Positions 481 to 30,742 of a stretch of 34,973 nucleotides of DNA are shown here, piece by piece. The position numbers were made by a program, and so were the translations under genes. The notes under the pieces are model-generated. The model searched no databases and was not told the DNA's origin. It saw only the letters and a list, made by a program, of their open reading frames with translations. The stretch lies in sequence record SRR31156797_4420, one strand, 5' to 3'. How positions within the stretch are numbered: position 1 is the stretch's first letter; each line of letters begins with the position of its first letter.

Positions 481-1791
481 TTATTGTTTGTTAATTCCTG
501 CAATTTTTTCAAGCATTTCAGTTGTTAATGATTTCGGGCGTTCCAAAGGATAACCTAATGCACGGTCCCAAATAATATTGGCCGAAATACCAATTGCTCT
601 TCCAATTCCAAATAAAACGGTATAGAAATCATATTCAGTAATTCCATAATGCCATTGGATAACACCACTTTGAGCATCAACGTTTGGCCATGGGTTCTTT
701 GCTTTACCGTGCTCTTTCAAAATTGGTGGTACTACTTTATACAATAAATCTGTGTATTTGAATAAAGGATCATCCTGAAGATGTTTTAAACTGAATTCTC
801 TTTGTAGGGCATATCTGGGGTCTGTTTTACGCAATACTGCGTGACCATAACCTGGAATAACCTGACCTGAGTTAAGTGTATCCCAAACAAATTGTTTCAT
901 TTCTTCTTCACTAGGTATATTTCCACCCATTTTATCCATAAGCTCTTGTAGCCAACGCAATACTTCCTGATTTGCCAGACCATGCAATGGTCCGGCCAAG
1001 CCGTTTACCATCGATGATATTGCCAGGTATACATCACTAAGTGAACTTGCTACTAAATGACCTGTGTGGGCGCTTACGTTTCCGCTTTCATGATCACTAT
1101 GGATGATAAAATGCATTCTTGCTACATCATCATAAGGGGCAGGAATACCCATCATATGGGCAAAATTACCACCAAAATCAAGTTCAGGCGAGCTTTGGAT
1201 GCGTTTGCCATCACGGTATAGTTTCGCATAGATATATGAGCCAATTTCAGGTAGTTTTGCTAATAGATTCATAGCGTCCTCAAAGGTCGATTCCCAATAG
1301 TCCTGCTTAGGAATACCAGCCCGGTATTTTTTAGCGAAGAATGATTCTCTACCCATGGTAAGAATAGCGGTTGAGAATATAGCCATAGGATGACTACAAC
1401 ACGGAAATGAGTCAATTACTTCATATACATAACGAGGCAGAATTCTTCGTTTCGAGAATTCATCCAGAACTTGCTCTAACTCTTTTTCGTTTGGAATTTC
1501 ACCTGTTACCAATAGATAAAACAGCCCTTCTACATAAGGCATATCTTTTCCTTTTGGTTTTGGAAGTTTATCAAATACATCATGAAGCGTATGACCACGA
1601 TAACGTATACCTTCGTTTGGATCGAGGTAGGAGATATCAGTAACCAGACATTTGAGTCCTCTCATTCCTCCCAATACCTTACTTATTGTAACTTTATCTA
1701 CTTCAACATCACCAAATTCTTTCATAAGGCGCTCGGTTCTCGGGCGCTGGAGTTCTATCTTTTCAGCTAATTTTTCTTTTAACGTTTTCAT
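481..1791 (-). CDS. gltA: Citrate (Si)-synthase, eukaryote-like type
   Basis: GGMRG, EGIRYRG, HSDHESGNVSAH, LAGPLHGLANQEV, PGYGHAVLRKTDPRY, NPWPNVDA, LERPKS motifs. Confidence 0.95.
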   Translation of the reverse strand: MKTLKEKLAEKIELQRPRTERLMKEFGDVEVDKVTISKVLGGMRGLKCLVTDISYLDPNEGIRYRGHTLHDVFDKLPKPKGKDMPYVEGLFYLLVTGEIPNEKELEQVLDEFSKRRILPRYVYEVIDSFPCCSHPMAIFSTAILTMGRESFFAKKYRAGIPKQDYWESTFEDAMNLLAKLPEIGSYIYAKLYRDGKRIQSSPELDFGGNFAHMMGIPAPYDDVARMHFIIHSDHESGNVSAHTGHLVASSLSDVYLAISSMVNGLAGPLHGLANQEVLRWLQELMDKMGGNIPSEEEMKQFVWDTLNSGQVIPGYGHAVLRKTDPRYALQREFSLKHLQDDPLFKYTDLLYKVVPPILKEHGKAKNPWPNVDAQSGVIQWHYGITEYDFYTVLFGIGRAIGISANIIWDRALGYPLERPKSLTTEMLEKIAGINKQ

Positions 1792-1829
1792 ATATTAGAG
1801 TTTTATGTTTCTACCTAAATAAAGCTTTT

Positions 1830-4091
1830 CTAATTATTCTCTTGTCTAATTAGATTTAATGCTGAGCCAGCATGGAACCATTTTATTTGAATTGGACTAT
1901 AAGTATGTTTTGCTTCTATAGTTTCAGAAGTTCCATCATCATGCTTAATTACCATTTCTACATTCTTTCCGGGAGTAAGTTGATCTATGTTTAGTATATC
2001 AAATGTGTCATTCTCCTTTATTTTGTCGTAATCAGCAGGGTTGGCAAAAGTTAGGGCTAAAACACCTTGCTTTTTAAGATTTGTTTCATGTATTCTGGCA
2101 AATGATCTTACTATAACAGCACGAACTCCCATATGGCGTGGTTCCATTGCAGCATGTTCACGTGATGAACCCTCTCCATAGTTTTCGTCACCAATTACAA
2201 TAGATTGAACTCCTCCATTTTTATAAGCTCTTGCAACACTAGGAGTTTTATCATATTCACCGGTAATTTGATTTTTTGTATTCGGTTTTTCGGTGAAATA
2301 ATTTATTGCTCCCAATAATAAATTATCTGAGATATTGTCTAAATGACCACGAAATCTCAGCCATGGTCCAGCCATAGAAATGTGGTCTGTTGTACATTTT
2401 CCTTTGGCTTTAATTAATATCTTGAGGTCTTTGATATCTTTTGAATTGTTTGGTGCAAATGGTTCAAGTAATTGAAGCCTGTTTGAATCCGGTTTAACAA
2501 TAACATTTACATCACTGGCATCATCTGCCGGAGCTGTAAAACCTAATTCTTTGATATCAAATCCATTAGAAGGAAATTCTTCCCCATTAGGTGGGTCCAG
2601 GTAAACTTCTTCTCCATCTTCATTAATTAATGGATCTTTTAAAGGGTTGAAACTGAGTGAGCCTCCAATAGTAAGTGCTGTTACCATTTCAGGTGATGAA
2701 ACAAATCCATGTGTGTTTGGATTTCCATCGTTTCTTTTGGCAAAATTTCGATTGAAAGAGGTTAAGATGGTGTTTTTACGTTCCGGGTCGTCCGTATGCC
2801 TGTTCCACTGTCCAATACATGGTCCGCACGCATTAGCAAGCACAACTCCACCTATATCTTCAAAATATTGCAGTATTCCGTCGCGTTCAGTGGTATATCG
2901 TATCATTTCAGAGCCAGGAGTCACCATGAATTCTGTTTTAACTTTTAATTTCTTCTCTTTTGCTTGTTTAGCAATTGATGCTGCGCGAGTTAGGTCTTCA
3001 TATGAAGAATTCGTACACGAGCCAATTAAACCAACTTCAATATCAAGAGGGTATTCATTCTCTTTGGCGTTATTCCCTAATTGGCTAATTGGATGAGCTA
3101 AATCAGGAGTAAATGGTCCATTAACCAGCGGTTCCATTTCTGAAAGATTAATCTCAATAACTTTATCGAAATATTTTTCAGGACTGGCATATACATCGGC
3201 ATCACCTGTTAACATATCTTCCATTTGATTAGCCAGTTCGGCAACTTCTTCGCGCTCCGTAATTTTTAAGTAATCACTCATGCGGTTGTCATAACCAAAT
3301 AGGGAAGTGGTTGCACCAATCTCAGCACCCATATTGCAAATTGTTCCTTTTCCCGTACAGCTAATTGAATTAGCTCCTTCTCCAAAATATTCTAAAATAT
3401 ATCCTGTTCCACCTTTTGCTGTTAGAATATCAGCTACTTTAAGTATAACATCTTTTGGTGAGCACCAACCTGAGAGAGAACCGGTTAGTTTAACACCGAT
3501 TAGTTTAGGCATTTTGAGTTCCCAGGGCATATCTGCCATTACATCAACAGCATCAGCTCCTCCAACACCAATAGCTACCATTCCAAGTCCACCTGCATTT
3601 ACTGTGTGTGAGTCGGTACCAATCATCATCCCGCCTGGAAATGCGTAGTTTTCAAGGACTACCTGGTGTATAATTCCTGCACCCGGCTCCCAAAAACCAA
3701 TTCCATATTTTTTAGAAACAGACTTTAAAAAATCGAAAACTTCACTGTTTTGATTCCAGGCTGTAGATAAATCCTTTTCGGCACCTACCTGGGCTTGTAT
3801 CAAATGATCGCAATGAACTGTAGATGGTACGGCCACTTTATCTTTACCTGCATTCATAAATTGGAGTAAGGCCATTTGTGCAGTTGCATCTTGCATAGCT
3901 ACTCTATCCGGGGCAAAGTTTACATAGTCTTCTCCTCTTTTGAATTCTTTAAGTTCCTGTGAACTATGCAGATGGGTGTATAGAATTTTTTCTGCAAGAG
4001 TTAATGGTTTTCCAATTTTTTCGCGTGCATTTTGAAGTTTTTGTTCAAAATTCGCATAGACATCTTTTATCAGTTCTAAATCAAATAACAT
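1830..4091 (-). CDS. acnA: Aconitate hydratase, mitochondrial-like type
   Basis: [60 protein letters not shown] motifs. Confidence 0.95.
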
Positions 4092-4119
4092 AGTAGTGTT
4101 TTTTATTTTGAATATCTAA

Positions 4120-4127
4120 CAAAATTA
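4120..4127 (-). promoter_or_regulatory. -7 promoter box of acn-gltA
   Basis: TAATTTTG on minus strand, about 30 nt upstream of the start codon. Confidence 0.6.
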
Positions 4128-4336
4128 AAGCTTAAAATGTTGGCCAATTTCATATAGAAAGCCTTCATTTTAAATGATAATAACTAATTTATTTTCATTC
4201 TAAATATAAATAGATTTAAATATGTTAATATAGTTATTTTTATTTTACGTAGATAGCTTTTAGAATCTTTTTTATTTATCAAAGATTAATTGTTATGGAA
4301 AAGGTTTTTTTGTAATTTTAGTTAATATAACCAACT

Positions 4337-5953
4337 ATGAAACCTTTTCTATTACTGATAATCGTTTCCCTGTTTCTATTTAGTGAAATTTATGGTATAA
4401 ATAATCAACTCATTGAACAAGAAAAGCTGTGGATTGCCCAAAATGAGATTAAAGTTGGTATATATCCTTTTTATCCTCCTTTTGCATATATTGAAGATGA
4501 TGAATCAATAATTGGCTTGTTTCCTGATTTAAGGGAGTTAATTAAAGAATATTCAGGGTTGAGGTTTAAGCAGATTTTTTATCCCAATTGGGAGGCTTAT
4601 CTAGATGCCATTAAGCAGGGTGAGATTGATATGATTATGCCAATAATACCTACTGAGGGGCGAAAACGATTTTTAAATTTCTCCAGACCCATTGTTATGG
4701 ATCCTCATGCTATAGTTATTAGAAATGAAGATGTTGACAATGTAAATACCGATAATATCAAATTTAAGACTGATCTGGCTATTGGCGCCGTAAAAGGTTA
4801 TTTCATAACGGAATATGTGAAAACTGAATTACCTACGCATCAGATTCAATATTTTCTTGATGATAAACAATGTATTAAAGCATTATTGGAAAAGAAAGTT
4901 GATGTTTTCGTTACGCAAACATATACTGCTGCATATTTTCTGAGGGAATACAATGAACTGTCCATTATCTCAGATATTCCCACCAATACCATTTTAGCTA
5001 TTGGCACAACTAAAGAAAAGCCCATTTTGCATCAAATAATTAGTAAAACACTGGATCAGTTACCTGAAAATACTATTTCAGATCTGATTAATAAATGGAC
5101 GTATCAACATTATCAACCTTTTTATAAAAAGTTAAATTTTTGGATTGTTATTGGTCTTGGAGCACTATTCTTTGCTTTTTTCTTATTTGTAATGAATAAA
5201 GTATTACAAGTAAGAGTGAAAAAAAGGACAAATGAATTAATGCTTGCCAAACTTAAAGCAGAAGAAAGTGAGAAACTTAAAACAGCATTTGTTTTGAATA
5301 TATCACATGAGATCCGGACACCGTTAAATGCAATTAACGGCTTTTCTGAATTGTTAGCTTTGCAATTTGATGATGAGGTTATTAAGGATTATAGCAAAGA
5401 TATCATTGCAAATAGTCATAGGTTAACTACCGTAGTAGAGAGTATGATAATTTTTGCCCAGCTCGAAAGTGGAAATATTGAGTTTGACAAAAGACCGGTT
5501 TTACTCTGCGATATTGTGGATGCGGTTGCATTGAAATATAAAGAAATGTACCCTGAAAAGCTCAACGATATTGATTTTGAGTTGGAATGTGCTGCCAGTT
5601 CTCAAAAAATTGATACGGACTCATATTATTTCCGTAAAATGCTGGGATTTATACTGGATAATGCTTTTAAATTTACAAAACAAGGAAGAATTAGATTTGG
5701 ATATCGTGTTTATCACCGGCAATTAAATGTTTTTATTGAAGATACAGGAACAGGTATTAAGCAAGATACAATTCCTCGAATATTTGATCGATTTTATAAA
5801 TTTTCTGTATCTGACGAAAAATTCCATCCCGGAACAGGAGTAGGGTTAACTGTTGCCAAGAAACTTTCAGAAGAATTAGGTTTTGAAATGAAAATTGATT
5901 CTGAATTAGGTCATGGCACTGTAGTGAGTTTTAATGGGCAGATTAATGATTAA
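4337..5953 (+). CDS. Orphan sensor histidine kinase with periplasmic amino-acid-binding (family 3/VFT) domain
   Basis: Signal peptide; SBP-3-like segment (YPPFAY...GEIDMI...TEGRKRFLNFS); TM helix; H-box ISHEIRTPLN, N-box LDNAFKFT, DTGTGI, GTGVGL. Confidence 0.9.
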   Translation: MKPFLLLIIVSLFLFSEIYGINNQLIEQEKLWIAQNEIKVGIYPFYPPFAYIEDDESIIGLFPDLRELIKEYSGLRFKQIFYPNWEAYLDAIKQGEIDMIMPIIPTEGRKRFLNFSRPIVMDPHAIVIRNEDVDNVNTDNIKFKTDLAIGAVKGYFITEYVKTELPTHQIQYFLDDKQCIKALLEKKVDVFVTQTYTAAYFLREYNELSIISDIPTNTILAIGTTKEKPILHQIISKTLDQLPENTISDLINKWTYQHYQPFYKKLNFWIVIGLGALFFAFFLFVMNKVLQVRVKKRTNELMLAKLKAEESEKLKTAFVLNISHEIRTPLNAINGFSELLALQFDDEVIKDYSKDIIANSHRLTTVVESMIIFAQLESGNIEFDKRPVLLCDIVDAVALKYKEMYPEKLNDIDFELECAASSQKIDTDSYYFRKMLGFILDNAFKFTKQGRIRFGYRVYHRQLNVFIEDTGTGIKQDTIPRIFDRFYKFSVSDEKFHPGTGVGLTVAKKLSEELGFEMKIDSELGHGTVVSFNGQIND

Positions 5954-6701
5954 CTCTTTCAGCTGTTTTTGTTTTATCAATAAACCATTTACCAATAGAG
6001 CCTGCGCAAGGTTTTTCAAATTTCATTTTTTCAGGGTGAAATTGTACTCCCAGCGCAATCCAATCATCACCTATGTATTGTATAGATTCAACTACAGTAT
6101 CAATTGTCCTGGCACCTACTTTTAATTTCTCTCCAATATTATCAGCACTTTGGTGGTGATAAGAATTGACTAAACATTGGTTTAATCCTGTAATCTCATA
6201 CAATAATGAGGCTGTATCGATGCTAATTTCATGTATCGGTGGATTGTCTTTATCTCTATGTAAAATATTGTTTTCAATATCGGTTGGTATATCTGTATGT
6301 AAAGAGCCACCCAATGCTACATTCAACATTTGATGCCCACGGCAAATACCTAAAAGAGGTATCTTATTTTGTTTTGCATAAGCTATCATTTTGAGCTCTA
6401 ATGAATCTCGATATCTATCAAACTCACCACATTTTGGTATTTCGTCAGCTTTGCCATATAAAGAAGGATATATGTCGCGCCCTCCCGTTATTATAATGCC
6501 TGCAGCTTTTGATAACCATTTGTCAATAGAATCGTTATGCTGACCATAGGCTGATTTGAGTGTTAAAGTTGAATCAACATTATGTATAAAAGTCATATAG
6601 GTGCCATTTTTATCGGCTTTAGAAAATAAAATAAGATCTTGAGTAAAAGCTTCTGAACCAATAAATATAATGGTGATGAATATCAAAAAAATAATTTTCA
6701 T
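5943..6701 (-). CDS. Class I glutamine amidotransferase-like / gamma-glutamyl-GABA hydrolase (peptidase C26) family protein with signal peptide
   Basis: ITGGRDI, GICRGHQ nucleophile elbow, VNSYHHQ, GVQFHPE; hydrophobic N-terminus. Confidence 0.88.
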   Translation of the reverse strand: MKIIFLIFITIIFIGSEAFTQDLILFSKADKNGTYMTFIHNVDSTLTLKSAYGQHNDSIDKWLSKAAGIIITGGRDIYPSLYGKADEIPKCGEFDRYRDSLELKMIAYAKQNKIPLLGICRGHQMLNVALGGSLHTDIPTDIENNILHRDKDNPPIHEISIDTASLLYEITGLNQCLVNSYHHQSADNIGEKLKVGARTIDTVVESIQYIGDDWIALGVQFHPEKMKFEKPCAGSIGKWFIDKTKTAERVNH

Positions 6702-6750
6702 AGTTGTTGCTTTTTCATAGAAGGGTTGAAGATAAGCATTTTGAGCAAAT

Positions 6751-6775
6751 AAAAAAGGGTTGCCGAAGCAACCCT
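6751..6775 (-). terminator. Intrinsic terminator after the tandem aconitase-family genes
   Basis: Minus strand AGGGTTGC-TTCG-GCAACCCT followed by a T-tract. Confidence 0.88.
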
Positions 6776-6781
6776 GTATCT

Positions 6782-8557
6782 TTATTGTGCTTTAATCCAG
6801 TTGACCAGGCCTTTCTTTTCTATTACCTCCATTAGTTTTTCAGGTAATGGTGGAATATCGTAGGTTTTTCCTCCAATTGTTGCTTTACCTGCAGTTAAGT
6901 CTGCTTCAATTTCATCCCCAGGTTTATATGTTTCAACAATTTCTTTGTTTACAATCAATAATAATCCCTGATTGATGCATGACCGATAAAAAATACGGTT
7001 GGCAGATTTTACAATTACTGCTTTTACACCAGCATGAGCCAACCCTACAGCAGGGTGTTCACGAGAACTTCCACAACCGAAGTTTTCGCCGGCAACTACT
7101 ATATCACCTGCCTGTACATTTTTAGCAAAGTTTTCATCAAAACCGGCAAACAAATGAGGCATTATCGCTTCAGCGTCAGAACTCATTACGTTGTACGTTA
7201 GATTTCCTGCAAACATTTGATCGGTATTTAAATTGTCTGCATCAGCATAATTCCATACACCATTGATTCTACGATTATCTGTTTTTTCAATTTCAATGGT
7301 ATTGCCATCTTCTTTCTGATATGGAAATTTTTCATTCCCGGGCTTGCTTCTTGGATCAGTAATTTTACCATTTAACGCACTTAAAGCAACCGCTGCGGGC
7401 GATGCTAAATAAATTTCTGCCTCTTTGTTACCCATTCGACCTTTAAAATTGCGATTAGCTGTTGAGATTACAGTATAACCATCAGCTGGAATTCCCTGGC
7501 CAGTCCCCAAACATGGGCCACAACTGGCGCCAAGAACATTTGCCCCGGCATCAATTAAATCACTTATGATGCCTTCTTTGATAGCTTGTAAATATATCTT
7601 TTTGGAGGCTGGTGCAACCAATAATTGCACACTTCCGGGTATTTTTTGACCTTTCAATATATCACGTGCAATTCTTAAATCTTCAATACGACCATTAGTA
7701 CAGGTTCCAATTAATGCCTGTTGAATTGGTTTTCCGGCTACTTCAGCGATGGCTTTAACATTATCAACATGATGAGGTGCTGCAGTTAAAGGATAAAGTT
7801 CAGAGAGGTTAATTTCCATTTCTTTTACATAATTTGCCCCTTGATCTGCCCAAATACCTTCAATTTTTTCTCCGAAATAATTATCTAGAATCTCATCGGG
7901 AGGAAATACTGCATTTTTAGCTCCCATTTCTGATGCCAGGTTAGCAATAGTCATGCGCTCTGAAATAGAAAGGGTTTTCACACCTTCTCCATGATATTCA
8001 ATGCTCATATAGTTTGCACCAGCAGAACCTATCATTCCAATGATATACAAGGATAAATCTTTGGCAAAAACACCTTCAGGCAATTTTCCGGTTAAAGTAA
8101 TTTTAATACTTTCCGGTACTCTGAACCACGTTTCGCCACGGCGCCAAATTCCGGCAGCTTCTGTCCGGTCAATTCCGGCAGCTAAAGCATTAAAAGCTCC
8201 AGCTGTACATGTATGGCTATCGCTTCCCACGATGATCATTCCTGGTTTAGCGTGGTCAGCCATAATTTGATGACAAATACCATCCCCAACATCATGGAAT
8301 TTGCCCACATTTTGCTTCCTTGCAAATTCGCGAATTGTTTCATATTGTGTAGCCAATTTCGCATTGGTGGGAGGGGCGTTATGGTCTAAAACCATCAAAA
8401 GTTGATCAGGATTGGCAACTTGTTCACCACCCATTTTTTCGAATGTACCTTTTATACTGGCACTATTATCATGTGTTAGTACTAAATCGGGTTTTTTAAA
8501 TACAATTGATCCGACCTTTGCACCTAATATTTTTTCTACAAATGTATTTGCTGACAT
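6782..8557 (-). CDS. Fused large+small subunit aconitase-family hydro-lyase (LeuC-LeuD / homoaconitase-like), canonical active site
   Basis: THD, LDHNAP, GICHQ, GSDSHT, IGTCTNGR, SCGPC, NRNFKGRMG; C-terminal swivel domain with NTDQ and NFGCGSSREH. Confidence 0.88.
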   Translation of the reverse strand: MSANTFVEKILGAKVGSIVFKKPDLVLTHDNSASIKGTFEKMGGEQVANPDQLLMVLDHNAPPTNAKLATQYETIREFARKQNVGKFHDVGDGICHQIMADHAKPGMIIVGSDSHTCTAGAFNALAAGIDRTEAAGIWRRGETWFRVPESIKITLTGKLPEGVFAKDLSLYIIGMIGSAGANYMSIEYHGEGVKTLSISERMTIANLASEMGAKNAVFPPDEILDNYFGEKIEGIWADQGANYVKEMEINLSELYPLTAAPHHVDNVKAIAEVAGKPIQQALIGTCTNGRIEDLRIARDILKGQKIPGSVQLLVAPASKKIYLQAIKEGIISDLIDAGANVLGASCGPCLGTGQGIPADGYTVISTANRNFKGRMGNKEAEIYLASPAAVALSALNGKITDPRSKPGNEKFPYQKEDGNTIEIEKTDNRRINGVWNYADADNLNTDQMFAGNLTYNVMSSDAEAIMPHLFAGFDENFAKNVQAGDIVVAGENFGCGSSREHPAVGLAHAGVKAVIVKSANRIFYRSCINQGLLLIVNKEIVETYKPGDEIEADLTAGKATIGGKTYDIPPLPEKLMEVIEKKGLVNWIKAQ

Positions 8558-8575
8558 TTTTGATTGATTTTGAGT

Positions 8576-10384
8576 TTAGAATAATCCGCCACGCTTAAAT
8601 ATCTCTGTTTGAACTTCACTGAAAGGCTTAATCTGACCCTTTGTTCCTTTGGTTTTATTTTCCAATTCACCAGTCTCAAAGTTCAGTTTAATTTGGTCTC
8701 CAGTTTCAAGTTGTAACGAAGTAATATCGTTATAAGTTAAAATAGGCATGGCAGCATTAATGGCATTGCGCTCATAAATAGCACCAAAAGACTCAGCCAC
8801 AATAGCTTGTACGCCTAGTGCTTTGAAGCAATCAACTGCTTGTTGACGTGAACTACCGCTTCCAAAATTCTTCCCAGTTACTACAATATCATTGGGCTGA
8901 GCTTTTTTAGCGAAATCTTCATACCCTTCTAAATTATCAAATGTGTACTGACCCATTTCATTAATGTCTGTAATTGAAAGGTAGCGATTGTGGAAAATCA
9001 TATCTGTGTCAATATTATCTTGTTCAATTACCCAAACTCTTCCTTCAACTGTTGTTTTTGTTCCTGCAGCTTCTTTATTCTCTGATGATTTGCGTGGAGG
9101 AGCAGCGGCGAAATTTGTTTCAAATAGTACCGGTTCTTCAGGAATATGATCTGGTGATGTAATATAACCTGCAATTGCTGAGGCAGCTACTACTGCAGGA
9201 GATGCAAGGTATACTTCACCTTTACCTTGTTTACCCGGGAAGTTTCGGTTACCAGTACTTATTGTAATTTCACCAGGTCCATTTTGCCCAACCTGCCCTG
9301 CTGCGCAACCCGCGCAACCAGCATTGGAAATTAATGCTCCGGCATTTTTCAGCGTACGAATAATACCTTCTTCTAAAGCCATTTCCCATACTTCGTTAGT
9401 GGCAGGCACAACTTTTAATACGACGCCCGGAGCAACTTGTCTGCCATTGATAATAGCTGCAGCTGCTCTAAGGTCTTCAATTCTTCCGTTTGTACAACTT
9501 CCAATAAAGGCTGAATCAATTTTAATTTTATCTAATTCATCAATACTAGCAGTATCATGCGGTGCACCTGGAAGTGAAACTTTAGGTGTAAACTTACTAA
9601 TGTCAATATTGATTTCTTGCTCGTATGATGCATCAGCATCAGCAAAAACAGGATCTATTTTTTTACCTGCGCGTTCTTCACTATATTTTAAAATTGTTTC
9701 GTTTGGAGGGAACAATAAAATGATGGCACCCATTTCGGTACCCATTGATGCAATTGTAATGCGTTCATCCAATGTAAGTTTGTCAATGGCTTCGCCATAA
9801 AACTCAACCGAATATCCTAAAAGGGTATTGGCGCCAAATTTTTCAAGTAAATTAAGTACAATATCTTTAGCAGTTACGTTTGCCGGTTTTTCACCTTCAA
9901 AATTTATTTTAATTGAAGGGGGTGTTTTAAACCATATATTTCCATTGGCCCATGCTGCAGCAATATCTTTATCACCCATTCCCTGTCCAAATGCTCCAAC
10001 AGCTCCCAGGATATTGGCATGAGAGTCAGTAGTGATGGCTGTACTGCCCGAATGTACAAGTCCCTCATGGATCATAGTATGTGTGCCAATACCATTGTCA
10101 ATGTCGTATACTTTAATACCATATTCACGAGCAAATTGACGACAAACTTGTTGATTGATGGCATATTTTTGATCAGAACCGGTTGGATTCGTGTCAAAAG
10201 TAAAAAATGTTTTATCCGGATCTTTTATTGTAAGGTTGTTATCTCTAATGTTCTTTACTACGTTAGCACCACCAAAATCTCTGGCTGCTCTTACGTCTAT
10301 TTCAATATCAACGATGTCTCCGGGTTTAACATCGCTTTGTGCCGAATGAGAGGCAAGTATCTTTTCAATAATTGTTTTTCCCAT
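8576..10384 (-). CDS. Second fused large+small subunit aconitase-family protein (LeuC-LeuD-like), divergent active site
   Basis: TIIEKIL, TDSH, IGSCTNGRIEDL, GCAGC, NRNFPGKQG, YLASP; swivel domain DNIDTD and NFGSGSSRQQA. Confidence 0.88.
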   Translation of the reverse strand: MGKTIIEKILASHSAQSDVKPGDIVDIEIDVRAARDFGGANVVKNIRDNNLTIKDPDKTFFTFDTNPTGSDQKYAINQQVCRQFAREYGIKVYDIDNGIGTHTMIHEGLVHSGSTAITTDSHANILGAVGAFGQGMGDKDIAAAWANGNIWFKTPPSIKINFEGEKPANVTAKDIVLNLLEKFGANTLLGYSVEFYGEAIDKLTLDERITIASMGTEMGAIILLFPPNETILKYSEERAGKKIDPVFADADASYEQEINIDISKFTPKVSLPGAPHDTASIDELDKIKIDSAFIGSCTNGRIEDLRAAAAIINGRQVAPGVVLKVVPATNEVWEMALEEGIIRTLKNAGALISNAGCAGCAAGQVGQNGPGEITISTGNRNFPGKQGKGEVYLASPAVVAASAIAGYITSPDHIPEEPVLFETNFAAAPPRKSSENKEAAGTKTTVEGRVWVIEQDNIDTDMIFHNRYLSITDINEMGQYTFDNLEGYEDFAKKAQPNDIVVTGKNFGSGSSRQQAVDCFKALGVQAIVAESFGAIYERNAINAAMPILTYNDITSLQLETGDQIKLNFETGELENKTKGTKGQIKPFSEVQTEIFKRGGLF

Positions 10385-21367: not shown

Positions 21368-22063
21368 TTAAAGTATTGATTTTAATTCTTCCAATGATTC
21401 AATTTGCATTTTGGCGTTTCCTATTGATTCTCTTTTTTCAGGATTGAACCAAATAGAATCCATCCCCATTTTAATTGCTCCGGCAATGTCTGTTTTTTCA
21501 TCATCCCCAATAATTATTGCATTTGATTCTGAAGCCCCTGTTTTATTGAAAGCAAAATTAAAAATCGCTTTATCAGGTTTTTGAGCTCCAGCATCTTCAG
21601 AGGTAATTATTTTATCGAAGAATGATCTCAATTGGCAGTTTTGCAGTTTCTTTTCCTGCACCTCTTTAAAACCATTTGTGATAATATGAAGTTTGTATTT
21701 ACTACTTAAATAATCAATTGTTTGATGAGCTTTTGGAAAAGTATGCGTTTTATTGATACTTAAATTCAGGTACATTTCACCTGCTTCTTTACCTTCTATA
21801 GTGCCATCAAAGCCAAATCTTTTAAATGTTTCAGCAAATCTTGTGTCTGATAATTCTTTTTTAGTAATAGTGCCTTTCCTATAATCTTCCCATAATACTT
21901 CATTTATTTTACGATAAGTATTAAAGAATACTTCAAAATCAGGCTGATATTGCTCAATTCTGAAATGAAGGTATATTTCATGAATGGCTTCTTTTGAGTT
22001 TTTCTCAAAATCCCATATAGTGCGGTCCAGATCAAATAAGATATGCTGATATTTATTATTCAT
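21368..22063 (-). CDS. yjjG: YjjG family HAD pyrimidine nucleotidase
   Basis: FDLDRTIWDF, IITNGF, KPD, IIGDD...D. Confidence 0.88.
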   Translation of the reverse strand: MNNKYQHILFDLDRTIWDFEKNSKEAIHEIYLHFRIEQYQPDFEVFFNTYRKINEVLWEDYRKGTITKKELSDTRFAETFKRFGFDGTIEGKEAGEMYLNLSINKTHTFPKAHQTIDYLSSKYKLHIITNGFKEVQEKKLQNCQLRSFFDKIITSEDAGAQKPDKAIFNFAFNKTGASESNAIIIGDDEKTDIAGAIKMGMDSIWFNPEKRESIGNAKMQIESLEELKSIL

Positions 22064-22164
22064 TTTAGTTTTCTTAGCGCATATTCAGTAGCAAATTTTG
22101 TGCATTTTCGGTCTACTGCAACTTAAATATTTACAAATATGCTTTATAATAGGAAAGTTTAGAC

Positions 22165-22199
22165 AAGAAGAAGGGGCATTTGTAACCAGCAAATGCCCC
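22165..22199 (-). terminator. Intrinsic terminator
   Basis: GGGGCATTTG-CTGGTTA-CAAATGCCCC-TTCTTCTT on the minus strand. Confidence 0.78.
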
Positions 22200-22289
22200 G
22201 GAATTTGAAATAAACCAACTAAAAACCAGACAATTAATATGGTATTTGAATGATTAAGGGAAGTAATCGACCATATTAATTTGATTTGT
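22165..22289 (-). ncRNA. Candidate LytTR-regulated small RNA (~125 nt)
   Basis: Perfect -7 box upstream; perfect 12-bp stem AATTAATATGGT/ACCATATTAATT; U/G-rich linker; GC-rich terminator; only a 6-codon ATG ORF inside. Confidence 0.65.
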
Positions 22290-22294
22290 CTATT

Positions 22295-22302
22295 CAAATG
22301 TA
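22295..22302 (-). promoter_or_regulatory. -7 promoter box of the candidate sRNA
   Basis: TACATTTG on the minus strand. Confidence 0.7.
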
Positions 22303-22332
22303 AATTAAATTATTGAAATGTTAATGGATAAA

Positions 22333-22365
22333 TGTATGAACGGTTGTGTTAGGTGTATAAACGGT
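22333..22365 (-). promoter_or_regulatory. LytTR-type binding site (direct repeat, 21-bp period)
   Basis: ACCGTTTATACA-N9-ACCGTTCATACA; fits LytTR [TA][AC][CA]GTTN[AG][TG] repeats separated by 12 nt. Confidence 0.75.
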
Positions 22366-22499
22366 AATTTTTTTTTTCTTGATTATAATCTAATTATTAG
22401 AAATTTATCTCTAATATGCTTATTTAGAGGGGATTGTGTTTGGTTTGTGTATTATTGGTGTAAACCCATCAAATTAGTCTCAATTTTTCATGAAATTGA

Positions 22500-23246
22500 C
22501 TATTGTTCCAGAAATTCTTGCATAATATTTAAGAAATCTTGTTTTCTTCTTCTTGAAATAATTGCTTTAGATTCGTCAGTCATAAATACTGTATTTTGAT
22601 GTTTAATAACCTTTTGTATGTGTTGTAAGTTGATAAGGTGGGATTTATGGCAGCGATAGAAAGTATCACCCTTTAGTATTTCTTCATATTCCCCTAATGA
22701 CTTTGAGACAATAACTGGTGGATTATTAAATATATGCACAGTGGTGTAATTCCCATCTGCTTCAAATTGAATAATGTTTTTGGTTTGCACAACCTCAATT
22801 GTTTCTAGAGTAGGTAAAGCAAGCCTTTGTGGTGATTGGTCGTTGAGGTTTTGTTTTAAAACAGGAAATTTTCTACTGGTATAGTTATTCTGAAGATCTT
22901 TCACTCTGTTAATGGCATCTTGTAGATAAGAAATATCTATCGGTTTTAGTATATAATCAATTGCTGAATACTTGAAAGCTTTAATAGCATATTGATTAAA
23001 TGCTGTGACGAAAATAACATGAAAATCAATGGAATCCATTCTGTCTAATAAATCAAAACCACTGCCTTGGGGCATCTCTATGTCAAGAAAAACCAGGTCA
23101 GGATTCTGTTTGGTAATTATTTTTTCAGCATCATTTATATTGCTTGCTTTCCCAACAACTTTCAAATTAGGATCAATACTTTCGAGAAATATTTCTAAAG
23201 ATTCAATAGAAGCAATTTCATCATCAACAATAACCGTTTTCAGCAT
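22500..23246 (-). CDS. LytTR family response regulator
   Basis: REC domain (VDDE, FLDIEMP, VTAF, ILKP) plus LytTR domain (EADGNYT, FYRCHKSHLIN, ISRRRK). Confidence 0.95.
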   Translation of the reverse strand: MLKTVIVDDEIASIESLEIFLESIDPNLKVVGKASNINDAEKIITKQNPDLVFLDIEMPQGSGFDLLDRMDSIDFHVIFVTAFNQYAIKAFKYSAIDYILKPIDISYLQDAINRVKDLQNNYTSRKFPVLKQNLNDQSPQRLALPTLETIEVVQTKNIIQFEADGNYTTVHIFNNPPVIVSKSLGEYEEILKGDTFYRCHKSHLINLQHIQKVIKHQNTVFMTDESKAIISRRRKQDFLNIMQEFLEQ

Positions 23247-23249
23247 AAT

Positions 23250-26057
23250 TTATTTATTAATAGGATATTTTATTGTTGTTTTGTTTCCTGTAACCTCATT
23301 ATTATGATTAAATAAAACTTCAGTTTCAACCATAATTTTATTTCGATTTTGTCTATTATAAACTTCTATACGTTGTTCTGCAATTTGTGTTCCACTTTTA
23401 ACTTTTTTGTTTTGAATCTTAATCTTTTCAGATTCCAGCATTTGCATATTTATTCCATTGTCAATTATGCTGCAAGCCAACTTGTTATCGATAATTTTAA
23501 ATTGAATAATTACCGTACCTTTTTCATATTTATTAAGAATATTTTCTTTTATTGAACGATCAACATAAGGTTGTATAAGGAATGGTATGATGCGAATGCT
23601 TTGATCATTTATATCAGGTGTTTTCTTAATGCTATAACTGAATTTATCCTTAAACCTCAGTAATTCTAATTCTAAATATAATGTTAAAGCTTCTATTTCT
23701 TCACTTAGAGGAACTTTTTTTGTTGTTGAGTTATCAAGAATTTTTCTAATAAGGGTTGAGAATTTTGTTAAGTATTTACTTGATTCAATTGGTTTGTTTT
23801 GTAATACGAAATGGTTAATGGAAGTTAATGAGTTAAATATAAAATGAGGATTCATTTGTTGTTGAAGTACAGTCTGCATTTGAGAAATTCTAGAATTTTC
23901 TAATACATTTCTTCTTTTAATTTCTTTTAACTTGGACCGAACGAATAGAAACGATACCACAATAATCAAGATAGCTAGAAGTATCAGCGCATATATATTT
24001 TCGTACCAATAACCTGTTTTTTCTATTTGAATAAGTAAATAATTGTGATTCTTTTGAAATTCAGGATTGTCGCTTATTTTTATTTTTGATATCCCTGAGC
24101 TGATCTGTGATATGTTTAATTCATTATTGCTGATATTGTATACATTTTTGTTTCCATCGATTTTAAAATATAATGTTTCCGGATTATTACTTTCAAAATT
24201 AAATGTGGAAAAATGTAAACTTAAATGTTTCAGATCCTTATCTACTTGTAGTGTGACAACTTCATCTTTAGTTTTACTTATTTTAGGAGTTTGGACTTTG
24301 ATTTTGAATTGTTTATTTTTCTTATGTTTTCTTACAGGGAATGAATATAATCGTTCATAATTATAAACAAACAATCTATTATTCAGTAAAAATGTCTTTT
24401 TAATCTTGTTGTTTGGTAAAATGGAATTTAGGTAAGAAAATGAATCAGTAAAGTTGAAATCATCATCACTTACTTCTAATCCATTATTTGTACTAATAAA
24501 AAATAATGAATCGTTTTTAGAAATATGATTGACAGAAATTTTTCTGGAAAGATTAATCAATTTATTGGCTGATGGGGTTTTGAATTCAAGTTTTGTGTTG
24601 CCATAATATATAAAAAGACTTGCATTATGTTTATTTATTGAAAGCACAGGTAGGTTAGAAATCTTTTCACTAAAGCCACTACGAGATATTTCCCACAAGC
24701 CTTTGTCGCTACTGGCATATAGATTATTATTCCATTGACAAATATTTGTAAATGAATGATCTTTTATAAGTGTGTCAGTAATTTTGCTTTTTCCCAAATT
24801 GTACTTAATAATACCATTGATACCAGCAAAATATATTTCATTTCCGAGTATTGCAGCGTCAAAAACAGGTGCATTTAGCGAAATTATAGCATCAATATTA
24901 AAACTATTGTTCGATGTGTTAATAATTACTGATTCGTAACTATTAAAGGCAATTATTTGTTGGGAATTTGTATGAATGAGCTTTCTTGCTTTTTGGGGAA
25001 GCTTAAGAACTTTTTCAAATTTTTGTTCCCCGTAATTAAATCGCTTTATATTCTGGTGTTCTTCAAGGGTATAAAGCTGACTATTTAAAACAATTACATC
25101 ATTTATTATGCTATTATTGTCGTTGCTAGCTGGTGCATAAATACAATAATCTAAAGAAGGGATATAAAATAAGCCATCATTTAATGTTCCAATCCATAGT
25201 CCATCGTTTGCATCTGAAAATATGGTGGTTACGGTAATATTTTTAAGTAAAGTATCTATTACCCTGTTATTTTTTCTCACTTCTAATCCTACATCTTGAA
25301 TACCGATAAGTTCAAAAGGTCCAGCAATATGAGAGGAGTAAATTACTTTGCTGTAGTAAGCATATCTTATTTTATCCTTTTTATTAAACAATTGCAGATT
25401 TCCAATATTGCATCTTAATAGCGTATCGTTTGAATAGCCTGAAATATAACCTAAAATGAAAGCCTTGTTTTTAAATAGCTTCTCTTTGTTTAACAGCAAG
25501 TATAGGCCAAGTTTTGTTTTCCATTTATTTTCAAATTGATTGATAATTTCAAAAGAAGATTGATCAACTGTAATTCTTTCAAAAGAGAAAAGAGAATCGT
25601 TTACAAACATATACTTCTCTCTACCATAGGTAATAAATGATAATGTATCTTGTGATTTTTTAAAGGTGCCTTTTATTGGGGGCATTGTAGCGCCAGGCCA
25701 TGATTCTTTGCTTTTTTGAAGGACCATTTTATCTTCTGATATTCGCCATGTTCGTCCTGTCCTTTCTGCTGCCCATAAAGAGTTGTTGTCAGCCCTGTAT
25801 AGATTATTAAATTTTGGTTTTGAAATATTGTTTAGATTACTAATATTTATAAATCTTAAACCATCAAATTTATACAATCCGTTTTCACTTGCAATCCATA
25901 TAAAGCCATCCTTATCCTGCGTAATATCATCAATATGAAAGGCTTTAAAGTTGGGGTAATTATTAAAAGTTCGCATTACTGGTTTTTGAGCAGCGACCTG
26001 TAATGAGAGGAAAATTAAAGTAAGATAAATATAAAATCTATTTTTTTGCACCTTCAA
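23250..26057 (-). CDS. LytS/YehU-type sensor histidine kinase with beta-propeller periplasmic region and degenerate HATPase (start codon uncertain)
   Basis: Signal peptide; QDKDGFIWIA and GLWIGT propeller repeats; TM; QMNPHFIFNSL H-box; EEI...YLELELLRF. Confidence 0.88.
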   Translation of the reverse strand: MKVQKNRFYIYLTLIFLSLQVAAQKPVMRTFNNYPNFKAFHIDDITQDKDGFIWIASENGLYKFDGLRFINISNLNNISKPKFNNLYRADNNSLWAAERTGRTWRISEDKMVLQKSKESWPGATMPPIKGTFKKSQDTLSFITYGREKYMFVNDSLFSFERITVDQSSFEIINQFENKWKTKLGLYLLLNKEKLFKNKAFILGYISGYSNDTLLRCNIGNLQLFNKKDKIRYAYYSKVIYSSHIAGPFELIGIQDVGLEVRKNNRVIDTLLKNITVTTIFSDANDGLWIGTLNDGLFYIPSLDYCIYAPASNDNNSIINDVIVLNSQLYTLEEHQNIKRFNYGEQKFEKVLKLPQKARKLIHTNSQQIIAFNSYESVIINTSNNSFNIDAIISLNAPVFDAAILGNEIYFAGINGIIKYNLGKSKITDTLIKDHSFTNICQWNNNLYASSDKGLWEISRSGFSEKISNLPVLSINKHNASLFIYYGNTKLEFKTPSANKLINLSRKISVNHISKNDSLFFISTNNGLEVSDDDFNFTDSFSYLNSILPNNKIKKTFLLNNRLFVYNYERLYSFPVRKHKKNKQFKIKVQTPKISKTKDEVVTLQVDKDLKHLSLHFSTFNFESNNPETLYFKIDGNKNVYNISNNELNISQISSGISKIKISDNPEFQKNHNYLLIQIEKTGYWYENIYALILLAILIIVVSFLFVRSKLKEIKRRNVLENSRISQMQTVLQQQMNPHFIFNSLTSINHFVLQNKPIESSKYLTKFSTLIRKILDNSTTKKVPLSEEIEALTLYLELELLRFKDKFSYSIKKTPDINDQSIRIIPFLIQPYVDRSIKENILNKYEKGTVIIQFKIIDNKLACSIIDNGINMQMLESEKIKIQNKKVKSGTQIAEQRIEVYNRQNRNKIMVETEVLFNHNNEVTGNKTTIKYPINK

Positions 26058-28312: not shown

Positions 28313-30742
28313 ATGCTCAAATTCAATGAAATAGCACAGCTTCTGGAAGGTGAACTGGTCGGAACTTATGATGGTTCAGTAAAATATTTACTTACCGATA
28401 GTAGAAAAGTAAAATCAGTTGATGATACGGTGTTTTTTGCTATTTCAGGGGCGTTTCATGACGGTCATCAATACATTGAATCGCTTATTGAAAAAGGTGT
28501 TCGTTTTTTTGTAGTATCGAAACTGACGGATAAATTGAGGCAAAAAGCTTCTTTTATTTTGGTGAAAGATGTAATTGAAGCTTTACAAAAAGTAACTGCC
28601 TTTTGGCGACAACAATTTGATATTCCAATTATTGGAGTAACAGGGAGCAATGGAAAAACCATAATTAAGGAATGGTTAGCTCAAATGCTTGAAGGAGACA
28701 AACGTGTGACGAGAAATCCGGGTAGTTATAATTCACAAATTGGTGTGCCGCTATCAATATGGTTATTAAATAAGGATACCCAGATTGGTATATTTGAAGC
28801 TGGAATCTCTCAACCAAAAGAGATGCGCAGGTTAGAGGAGGTTATGCAACCCAATATTGGAATTTTTACAAACATTGGTGATGCACATCAAGAGAATTTT
28901 AAAACATTTGAAGAAAAACTAGAAGAAAAACTAACTCTTTTCAAGCGAAGCGAGGTGTTGATTTATAATGATCAGGGCGACTGGATTTCAGACAAAATTA
29001 AAAATACTTGTAAAGGCCAGAAGCTGTTTTCATGGTCTTTTAACCGGGAGGCAGATGTAATTGCAACGCAAAATCAGCATGCAATAGAAGTTCAATTTTT
29101 GGAAGAACGGTTTGAAATATTGTTGCCATTTCATGATAAAGCTTCTGTAGAAAATTTAATGCATAGTATCACTACTTTAATTTATTTAGGATATAATTCA
29201 TCTTATATTAAATCTGCTGTAGAGAAGATTAGACCAGTTGCTATGCGCCTGGAGCAAAAGGCTGGTAAAGAAAACAATACAATAATAAATGACTCATATA
29301 ACTCTGATTTAGGATCTTTATCAAATGCATTGGATTATTTATCGCAGCAAAATCAGCATAAGCGCAAAGTTGTTATACTATCTGATATTTTTCAAAGTGG
29401 TTTTGTAAAAGAAAACCTATACAAAGAGGTGGCAGTATTAATTCATGCTCACAAACCAGATTTATTGATAGGTGTGGGAACTGATTTATTAAAATATCAG
29501 GATTTATTTCACACGGAATCGCAGTTTTATGAGTCAACAAGGGACTTAATTTCAAATTTGAATGAAATAGATTTAAGCGATGCAACTATTTTACTAAAAG
29601 GAAGTAGGAGTTTCCAGTTTGAGCAAGTAGATAAACTATTGGAAAATAAAACGCATAGAACCGTTTTAGAAGTAAATTTAAATGCATTGACAGATAATTT
29701 AAACTACTTTAAATCACTACTAAAAAATGATGCGGGAATTATTGCTATGGTAAAGGCTTTTTCATATGGCAGTGGTTCTCATGAAATTGCTCAAGTTCTT
29801 GAATACAATCGGGTGTCATATTTGGCCGTTGCATTTGCTGATGAGGGGGTTGATTTAAGAACGCGTGGTATTCAGTTGCCCATTATGGTTATGAATCCAG
29901 CCGAAACAGATTTTCCCAGTCTTATTACATTTGATTTGGAACCTGTTATTTTTGATTTTGAGATGCTTGGCAAATTAAGTGCTTTTATGCAAAAGGCAGG
30001 TGAGCGTAAGTTTCCAGTTCATCTGAAAATCAATACTGGTATGAACAGATCTGGTTTTAATGGAGAAGACATAGCAGTTTTGATTTCAAAATTGAAAAAT
30101 ACTGATACGCTTATCATAAAAACTGCATTTACACATTTGGCTGCAGCTGATGAACCGCAGCATGATTCATTTACACACCAGCAAGTAGCAAATTACATTA
30201 GACTGGTAAGTCAATTAGAATCAGGATTAAATCATAAAGTTAAAAAGCATGTTTTGAATAGTGCAGGGACTGAGCGATTCCCGGATTATCAATTTGATTA
30301 TGTGCGCTTAGGTATTGGTTTATATGGAGTGAGCGCGACTGATAAGAAATTAGCACATGTTAGTCGATTGACTACAAGTATTGCTCAACTTAGACATGTG
30401 CAGGTTGGTGAAACTATAGGTTATGGACGTAGAGGTGAAATAAACACACCAAAAACTATTGCAACCATACCAATAGGTTATGCTGACGGATATAGGCGGG
30501 CACTGAGTAACGGTGTTGGAAAAGTATGGATTAAAGGTAATTTAGTACCTGTAATTGGAAATGTTTGTATGGACATGACCATGATTGATGTAACAGGATT
30601 AGATGTGCAAGAGGGAGATGAAGTTGTTATTTTTGGAACCGAATTACCAATTCAGCAAGTTGCAGATTGGCTAGATACCATACCTTACGAGATATTAACA
30701 AATGTAGCTGCTCGTGTAAAACGAGTTTATACTAAAGAATAA
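28313..30742 (+). CDS. alr: Bifunctional MurF-like ligase / alanine racemase
   Basis: VTGSNGKT, NSQIGVP, INDSYN, LKGSR, then AMVKAFSYG (PLP Lys), HLKINTGMNR, PIGYADG, GNVCMD, TIPYE. Confidence 0.95.
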   Translation: MLKFNEIAQLLEGELVGTYDGSVKYLLTDSRKVKSVDDTVFFAISGAFHDGHQYIESLIEKGVRFFVVSKLTDKLRQKASFILVKDVIEALQKVTAFWRQQFDIPIIGVTGSNGKTIIKEWLAQMLEGDKRVTRNPGSYNSQIGVPLSIWLLNKDTQIGIFEAGISQPKEMRRLEEVMQPNIGIFTNIGDAHQENFKTFEEKLEEKLTLFKRSEVLIYNDQGDWISDKIKNTCKGQKLFSWSFNREADVIATQNQHAIEVQFLEERFEILLPFHDKASVENLMHSITTLIYLGYNSSYIKSAVEKIRPVAMRLEQKAGKENNTIINDSYNSDLGSLSNALDYLSQQNQHKRKVVILSDIFQSGFVKENLYKEVAVLIHAHKPDLLIGVGTDLLKYQDLFHTESQFYESTRDLISNLNEIDLSDATILLKGSRSFQFEQVDKLLENKTHRTVLEVNLNALTDNLNYFKSLLKNDAGIIAMVKAFSYGSGSHEIAQVLEYNRVSYLAVAFADEGVDLRTRGIQLPIMVMNPAETDFPSLITFDLEPVIFDFEMLGKLSAFMQKAGERKFPVHLKINTGMNRSGFNGEDIAVLISKLKNTDTLIIKTAFTHLAAADEPQHDSFTHQQVANYIRLVSQLESGLNHKVKKHVLNSAGTERFPDYQFDYVRLGIGLYGVSATDKKLAHVSRLTTSIAQLRHVQVGETIGYGRRGEINTPKTIATIPIGYADGYRRALSNGVGKVWIKGNLVPVIGNVCMDMTMIDVTGLDVQEGDEVVIFGTELPIQQVADWLDTIPYEILTNVAARVKRVYTKE

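Follow-up and report, generated by a model that had tools for sequence, protein, structure and literature searches.

Introduction

The circuits RgaS-RgaR/SpoZ of Clostridioides difficile, VirS-VirR/VR-RNA/VirT/VirU of Clostridium perfringens and AgrC-AgrA/RNAIII of Staphylococcus aureus share a common layout, in which a sensor kinase and its response regulator activate a small RNA (sRNA) gene through two direct repeats placed 21 bp apart immediately upstream of the promoter. RgaR and VirR carry LytTR domains. The SpoZ, VR-RNA and RNAIII circuits are all from Firmicutes and are linked with peptide quorum sensing or with the control of toxins and sporulation. Here we analysed a Bacteroidota locus with a similar layout, located in a DNA stretch of 34,973 nt from sequence record SRR31156797_4420 (the whole stretch is referred to as the window). 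The minus strand of the window carries all the features of the module, namely a sensor kinase gene, a LytTR regulator gene, a pair of LytTR-type boxes, a -7 TAnnTTTG promoter and a candidate sRNA gene of about 126 nt. Unlike in the SpoZ, VR-RNA and RNAIII systems, the sensor is a periplasmic propeller kinase, no peptide-signal genes occur nearby and the RNA sequence is unrelated. PMC10602386 reports critical G residues at -51 and -72 in the RgaR-activated spoZ promoter, and the Gs of the two ACCG motifs in the window lie at matching positions, at about -51/-72 when counted from a start that was itself deduced from the -7 box.

As for the RNA, the closest likeness is with GibS/FopS of Bacteroides thetaiotaomicron. 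According to PMC7366714 and PMC11697453, these RNAs combine a sigma-A -7 promoter with a long single-stranded seed and an intrinsic terminator, occur as several paralogues per genome, one of them derived from a 3' untranslated region (3'-UTR), and repress by pairing around start codons. However, the GibS/FopS seed described there is located at the 5' end and the targets are SusC and glycan genes, whereas the window RNA bears its seed between the 5' hairpin and the terminator and has signalling genes as predicted targets, with no sequence or Rfam match between the two. The transcriptional regulator of GibS and FopS is given as unknown in PMC11697453, while the window RNA has a dedicated two-component pair as its candidate regulator.

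AlgR of the AlgZ-AlgR system of Pseudomonas aeruginosa, a LytTR regulator, has the 9-bp site CCGTTCGTC (PMC4064291), and the window-type boxes contain the same CCGTT[C/T] motif (CCGTTCGTA in genome G706, CCGTTCATA and CCGTTTATA). Instead of forming a 21-bp tandem at a constant distance from a promoter, AlgR sites are scattered, and the likeness is one of short motifs only. In Proteobacteria, phosphorelay-driven siblings that share a seed and feed back on signalling genes are OmrA/OmrB with EnvZ-OmpR and Qrr1-5 with LuxO. These RNAs are Hfq-dependent, with short seeds and OmpR- or NtrC-type regulators, whereas the window RNA shows a long seed, a LytTR-type regulator and boxes on one copy only.

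An initial sequence-only reading of the window had named no described equivalent of this module. No Rfam match was obtained, and no LytTR-to-sRNA circuit in Bacteroidota emerged among the matches listed in full-text literature searches. The circuit would work like AgrA-RNAIII, VirR-VR-RNA and RgaR-SpoZ, and the RNA like GibS/FopS, but the RNA is a member of none of these RNA families. We regard it as a new sRNA family of a little-studied marine and hypersaline lineage of Bacteroidota, for which a dedicated regulator is plausible and a predicted target is conserved. The control of sRNAs in this phylum is little known, and propeller-kinase/LytTR pairs are many, with almost none of their outputs known.

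Organization and Conservation of the Module

The kinase gene is followed by the regulator gene, by a gap of 436 bp that contains the boxes, the promoter and the RNA, and finally by yjjG (Table 1). We consider it reasonably probable that the element at 22291-22163 is the gene of a trans-acting sRNA, activated by the LytTR regulator and silencing its targets by base pairing. The propeller-type sensor kinase would phosphorylate the LytTR regulator, a dimer of which would bind the two 12-nt boxes, with centres near -48 and -69, and recruit the sigma-A polymerase to a promoter endowed with a good -7 box and no -33 element. Target mRNAs would then be bound by the RNA seed at their A-rich translation start regions, and initiation would be blocked. 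In this way one signalling pathway would damp another, the best conserved predicted target being the gene of a soluble HisKA sensor kinase.

Transcription from the promoter, binding of the regulator and repression of the target are inferred from genome comparison. The proposal that the output of the pair is a regulatory RNA directed at initiation regions, first made from the single sequence, gains comparative support from synteny, an invariant tract, covariation, the boxes and a conserved site at a start codon. The locus offers a complete testable circuit, including a sensor, a regulator, a perfect site occurring once per genome, a 29-nt invariant seed and a predicted mRNA target. If true, this would be the first LytTR-to-sRNA circuit outside the Firmicutes within the literature searched, and an example of one two-component system damping another via RNA.

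Table 1. Features of the candidate module, with positions in the window.
Feature	Position	Strand	Basis or remarks
Candidate sRNA gene, ~126 nt	22291-22163	-	5' stem-loop, seed and intrinsic terminator
5' stem-loop, outer AGACAA/UUGUCU, inner around AUAUGG/CCAUAU	22228..22291	-	Orthologue folds, RNAalifold
Predicted single-stranded seed tract GGUUUUUAGUUGGUUUAUUUCAAAUUCC	22200..22227	-	Invariant alignment columns, sibling copies, complementarity to kinase start
Intrinsic terminator, 10-bp stem, loop CUGGUUA, U-rich tail	22163..22199	-	Terminator scan and orthologue folds
Distal LytTR-type box ACCGTTTATACA	22354..22365	-	G at about -71/-72 from predicted start
Proximal LytTR-type box ACCGTTCATACA	22333..22344	-	G at about -50/-51; 21 bp from distal box
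Bacteroidota sigma-A -7 box TACATTTG, fits TAnnTTTG	22295..22302	-	
Sensor histidine kinase, 935 aa as called, TTG start	23250..26057	-	His_kinase PF06580 and Reg_prop (Pfam)
Response regulator, REC and LytTR, 248 aa	22500..23246	-	Pfam Response_reg 1.3e-21, LytTR 3.6e-19
yjjG-type pyrimidine nucleotidase (HAD)	21368..22063	-	NCBIfam TIGR02254, 1e-64, above cut-off

The order kinase, regulator, boxes, TAnnTTTG box, hairpin, tract, terminator and yjjG is maintained in five genomes (G703, G559, G705, G706 and G704) and at the metagenome locus L081. All genome searches were carried out on samples, and absence means not found in the genomes searched. The full element was present in 5 of the 13 genomes of the G559 family and matches to the RNA in 6 of them; G707 showed seed-like sites only, and the contig with its regulator orthologue (60% identity) stops 120 nt past the stop codon, short of where the boxes would begin. 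The regulator is 71% identical to that of the window in G703, 57-58% in the other carriers and 57% at L081 (tblastn), and YjjG shows 53-71% identity across carriers. The kinase is 33% identical over its full length at L081, while in the other carriers the C-terminal region of about 185 aa shows 44-64% identity. Of the family genomes that lack the RNA, four were searched for the regulator, with a best identity of 38% in G661 and G698, and no match at E up to 1e-40 in G443 and G701.

Within the RNA, the invariant positions comprise 29 nt of the seed and 11 nt surrounding the terminator loop and, as judged from the alignments, the RNA is more conserved than the neighbouring genes. The other conserved stretches are both boxes (consensus ACCG[T/A]TNNTACA) with much of the 9-nt spacer between them, and the TAnnTTTG box. 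Conversely, no alignment between orthologues is possible for the sequences from the regulator stop codon to the boxes, from the boxes to the -7 box and downstream of the terminator.

The distance from the terminator to yjjG, ranging from about 60 to about 375 nt across orthologues, bears on a different reading, in which the element would be a cis-acting leader or attenuator of yjjG, with yjjG driven by the regulator and the terminator working as a regulated stop. The gene does lie on the same strand and its adjacency is conserved in all orthologues, but the intervening sequences are unrelated and, in G559 and L081, include a separate TAAATTTG box. The folds show no conspicuous anti-terminator pairing as an alternative, and the sibling copies of the RNA described below are not followed by yjjG. 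We regard a cis-acting leader as highly improbable; yjjG is probably a conserved downstream neighbour that stands outside the circuit.

Regulator-based scans of the genome and metagenome contig collections returned mostly paralogues with 34-46% identity among the matches listed and, among these 160 loci, L081 was the sole carrier of the RNA. The five genomes reached via regulator loci gave no true match to the RNA. In terms of PNPase identity within 151 Bacteroidota genomes, the nearest were G132, G036, G001 and G108, at 65-68%. A search for the RNA in the 151 genomes of the G132 family found none, the only two weak matches being both judged chance: a 22-nt exact match to the hairpin/seed junction at L169 (positions 1501-1522; G189, from another family), in a gap upstream of the CTP synthase gene pyrG and with no terminator after it, and a second one falling within a coding region. 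In a sample of 401 genomes of the order, G559 was the only positive.

Structure and Coding Potential of the RNA Element

The region 22160-22292 (133 nt) folds with a minimum free energy of -33.6 kcal/mol (z = -4.72), and none of 200 shuffled sequences folded as well. Both hairpins pointed out by the sequence-only reading were recovered, i.e., the perfect 12-bp stem formed by AATTAATATGGT (22281-22270) with ACCATATTAATT (22243-22232), and the terminator at 22199-22173, with a stem of 10 pairs (6 G-C), a loop of 7 nt and TTCTTCTTGT after it. The U/G-rich tract GGUUUUUAGUUGGUUUAUUU lies between them at 22227-22208. Each orthologue folds alike into a 5' hairpin, whose loop measures 15-28 nt, an open tract and a terminator.

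RNAalifold returned three stems, with 6 pairs (outer), 9 (inner) and 10 (terminator), as well as a weak, invariant 4-pair hairpin within the tract. The input was an anchor-built alignment leaning towards structure, the 5' arm of the first hairpin having been misaligned by MAFFT. The stems are kept, with 138 of 145 stem cells paired overall and 50 of 50 in the terminator across the five orthologues. Two pairs changed on one side and four on both sides (C-G to U-A; U-A to A-U; A-U to U-A; U-A to C-G), the compensated pairs being located one in the outer stem, one in the inner stem and two in the terminator. The invariant block spans 29 nt from UCUGG to AAAUU (22230-22202, columns T62-T90 of alignment A1); G706 has an additional A. 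Its 24-nt version occurs once in the window at up to 3 mismatches, against 0 of 100 shuffles. None of the Rfam 15 models, including the deposited FopS model, matched the window at gathering score, and nothing was found over 22163-22291 at E up to 10.

We also considered that the transcript might encode a small protein. The open reading frame (ORF) of 6 codons starting with ATG (ATGGTCGATTACTTCCCTTAA), which had been described as the only one inside the element, is indeed present; a further ORF of 70 aa at 22297-22085, starting with TTG within the -7 box, had gone unmentioned and is not kept in the orthologues. An AUG in the first stem opens 35 and 70 codons in G706 and G704, respectively, running through the tract, but the frame opened by that AUG is only 13 codons long in G559 and 6 in the window, and no ORF with conserved start and stop was found across the five orthologues. 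A coding function for the transcript thus appears extremely remote.

Promoter and LytTR-Type Boxes

The direct repeat with a 21-bp period that had been noticed at 22365-22333 was confirmed and consists of two 12-nt boxes, equivalent to a 9-nt core with a 12-nt spacer. This arrangement conforms to the architecture of LytTR sites, for which PMC4847170 gives repeats of 9-11 nt and spacers of 11-13 nt, and bears out the LytTR-type layout initially attributed to the repeats. The tandem ACCGWTNNTACA-N9-ACCGWTNNTACA had a single match in the window at up to 3 mismatches, with 0.01 expected and 1 of 100 shuffles containing a match. The distal box is kept as ACCG[T/A]T[T/A]ATACA in 5 of 5 orthologues, whereas the proximal box takes the looser form ACCG[T/A]TNNTACA. 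A genome scan found the perfect tandem box exactly once in each of G559, G703, G704, G705 and G706, always at the RNA promoter, while a reversed control pattern gave 0-1 matches per genome scan. Single boxes with up to 1 mismatch occurred 11 times in the window, with 2.6 expected. A third box-like sequence, ACCAATAATACA, was observed on the minus strand at 22448-22459, with 1 mismatch, 94 nt upstream of the distal box within the same gap.

The perfect -7 box noted at 22302-22295 was found there as TACATTTG, and a box fitting TAnnTTTG (TACATTTG, TATATTTG or TATCTTTG) occurs in 5 of 5 orthologues at a constant distance from the first stem. The sigma-A consensus TAnnTTTG covers positions -12 to -5 in Flavobacterium (PMC9723704) and was originally defined in Bacteroides fragilis along with a -33 TTTG (PMC7366714). 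The start predicted from the -12/-5 box coincides with the first A of the outer stem (AGACAA/AGAUCA) in 4 of 5 orthologues, and falls at 22291/22290 in the window, one nucleotide inside the outer stem. The -33 TTTG is normally separated from the -7 box by 19-21 nt; a by-eye reading revealed no such element about 19-21 nt upstream of the -7 box in any of the five sequences. A good -7 box lacking a -33 element would give this region the look of an activator-dependent promoter.

Sibling Copies of the Seed

Additional copies of the 24-nt core CUGGUUUUUAGUUGGUUUAUUUCA, with different flanks, exist once in G559 (L172) and three times in G704 (L183, L181 and L178), the latter within 8 kb of contig C196. 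The G559 copy differs from the main RNA in its 5' hairpin and terminator and possesses a TAATTTTG box of its own. None of the siblings has LytTR-type boxes. They lie downstream of accessory genes, which encode a SHOCT-domain protein, two mutually related proteins without a known family and HipA-/HipB-like proteins. A shared seed within unrelated flanks is the expected outcome of selection on a pairing surface.

The siblings also bear on the possibility that the RNA acts mainly by protein binding, as a sponge or partner, via its three UGGUU motifs and not by pairing with mRNAs. These motifs are exposed, two in the tract and one in the terminator loop, and the loop CUGGUUA is invariant even though the stem beneath it changes. 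Moreover, the Bacteroides multicopy sRNAs FopS and GibS bind the protein RbpB, as reported in PMC11697453. However, the siblings retain the 24-nt tract while their terminator loops differ from that of the main RNA, and protein binding does not explain the complementarity of 20-30 nt to start regions in three genomes, which goes far beyond background. Protein binding as the main function is in our opinion quite unlikely.

Two further features of the siblings were recorded. AAA_14 ATPase genes also stand beside sibling copies, and the 16-nt motif AACCGAGCCATGACAA is found on both sides of the L178 copy and also abuts a seed-like sequence in G707 (L219).

Predicted Targets

The seed is complementary, over 20-30 nt, to the start region of an orthologous gene for a soluble HisKA kinase in G707, G705 and G559. 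A 36-nt seed stretch was compared by RNAduplex with the region from -150 to +90 of the kinase genes, resulting in energies of -36.6 kcal/mol in G707, -36.4 in G705, -34.0 in G559 and -28.7 in G703. The best background values were -27.9 kcal/mol in 578 windows taken from the window, after excluding the antisense of the RNA itself, and -26.5 kcal/mol in 690 windows from family loci. The complementary sites reach up to the AUG or overlap it. In the genomes of G559 and G705, the site on the opposite strand of the kinase start region was the sole match at E up to 1e-3 apart from copies of the RNA; in G707 it was accompanied by another one, located in the leader of an hsdM-like gene. The target kinase comprises a conserved N-terminal region of about 185 aa of no known family, then PAS domains in G707 and G703, and finally HisKA and HATPase_c. 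Its gene follows the gene of a T9SS-sorted PKD/GEVED protein in G559 and G703.

Since the mRNAs of Bacteroidota have no Shine-Dalgarno sequence and depend on open, A-rich leaders, a duplex spanning -31 to +1 should block initiation. Duplexes of the GibS/FopS type around the start codon have this effect, according to PMC7366714 and PMC11697453.

In G704, the best site was located in the leader of an OmpR-type regulator gene (18/20, -29.9 kcal/mol). A scan with the 20-mer seed complement at 3 mismatches gave matches at the level of the reversed-pattern control. The target at 4329-4337 that had been put forward as an example did not hold, being neither among the 12 best duplexes of the window nor above background.

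A broader role can be advanced only tentatively, and we rate it as rather unlikely. In this case the RNA would be the hub of a signalling relay undescribed in Bacteroidota, in which the propeller kinase/LytTR pair acts on the RNA as its dedicated, perhaps only direct output, the RNA represses a second, soluble kinase, and the siblings, placed behind accessory-island genes, give mobile or strain-specific DNA access to that signalling node. In the G704 version of the relay, the RNA would perhaps silence the OmpR-type regulator too.

As side observations, G707 carries an 18/20 seed-complementary site (L214/L180, contig C19; -35.3 kcal/mol) located 86 nt upstream of the start of an ORF, which we take, by eye, to be the methylase subunit of a type I restriction system. 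The seed-complement scan also returned matches in coding regions, e.g., L236 and L233.

Origin of the Putative Transcript and Points against the Proposed Circuit

Eighteen of the 19 listed sequencing runs contain part of the stretch, and four of them were examined, all as contigs. The X2 contig is identical to the window over 22223-22394. The contig from X6, a hypersaline lake, aligns with 22166-22377 at 6 changes and is divergent beyond either end, and this confinement of the similarity marks the boxes, the promoter and the RNA as one unit. The X17 contig (sediment, RNA-labelled) belongs to a relative and covers 22091-22238, the listed changes being all downstream of the terminator. The X18 contig (a mat, whose RNA status is a guess; depth 11.8) begins inside the terminator and is identical over 22178-22234, after which it shows a different hairpin. 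None of the four contigs reveals a transcript start, a transcript end or expression; those of X17 and X18 do not stop at the predicted ends of the RNA, and both could represent DNA or read-through from the regulator operon.

These contigs are relevant to a 3'-UTR origin, according to which the element would be the end of the kinase-regulator operon and the sRNA would be cut from the long transcript, with no regulated promoter of its own. The X18 contig reaches about 113 nt upstream of the predicted start, the terminator scan found none between the regulator stop codon (22500) and the boxes, and the sibling L181 lies 27 nt after the stop of an ORF. On the other hand, the TAnnTTTG box stands at a fixed distance from the stem in five orthologues although the spacer around it cannot be aligned, the LytTR-type boxes are conserved at activator distance, and the sequence from the regulator stop codon to the boxes is not conserved. 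A 3'-UTR origin without an own promoter is accordingly unlikely in our estimate, and the two origins can coexist. This and protein binding are the main alternatives, and both are compatible with a LytTR-activated, trans-acting sRNA.

Several other points weigh against the proposed circuit, together with the upstream extension of the X18 contig and the missing terminator before the boxes. The X17 contig runs through the terminator into diverged sequence. The covariation is thin and has to be taken as supportive, not as proof, because with only five sequences in about three clades the four compensated pairs amount to few independent events. The scan for the tandem box is partially circular, the pattern having been derived from the very sites then found, and the -7 boxes of the siblings L178 and L183 do not fit TAnnTTTG. 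As for the target, no orthologue of the kinase was found in G704 and G706, both carriers of the RNA, and the G703 gene (L197:1474-1900), with the weakest complementarity, has an in-frame TGA after about 80 codons. Finally, besides the perfect tandem, the closest relative, G703, carries 5 imperfect ones (1-2 mismatches) upstream of other genes, so that either the RNA is not the sole candidate output there or the motif is common to paralogous LytTR regulators; the extra sites may belong to paralogous LytTR systems.

Concerning these G703 loci, the extra sites (L190 and L192-L195) have in common a different spacer, ATAACAA.., and are located upstream of lipoprotein and secreted-protein genes. At L192, the box is followed by a unit of about 215 nt with a terminator hairpin at its end and a 27-codon ORF inside. 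In the G703 kinase gene, the frame continues behind the TGA, which could reflect a pseudogene, an assembly error or recoding.

Protein-Coding Genes of the Window

The sensor had been described as LytS-type, a definition that implies a multi-pass 5TM Lyt domain at the N-terminus. The phosphoacceptor core of this assignment was verified (His_kinase PF06580, 2.8e-21, residues 730-806), whereas the sensor part turned out to be a Reg_prop propeller (1e-05); at E up to 1, Pfam gave nothing beyond these two families and the 5TM Lyt domain was not found. The called ORF, with its TTG start, shares 20 nt with the end of rsmI (26038-26057), and the true start of the kinase is therefore uncertain, probably lying further in. 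The LytTR regulator was found where it had been placed, with the Pfam matches given in Table 1; the nearest NCBIfam models were BtsR and LytR, both under cut-off.

Elsewhere in the window, a single ORF of 809 aa at 28313-30742 joins MurF-like Mur ligase domains to a complete alanine racemase. The region 481-10384 contains a citrate synthase gene followed by three paralogues of the aconitase family (753, 591 and 602 aa). Interspersed among these are genes for a Peptidase_C26 protein and an SBP_bac_3-HisKA kinase, and such a cluster of aconitase-like genes is unusual.

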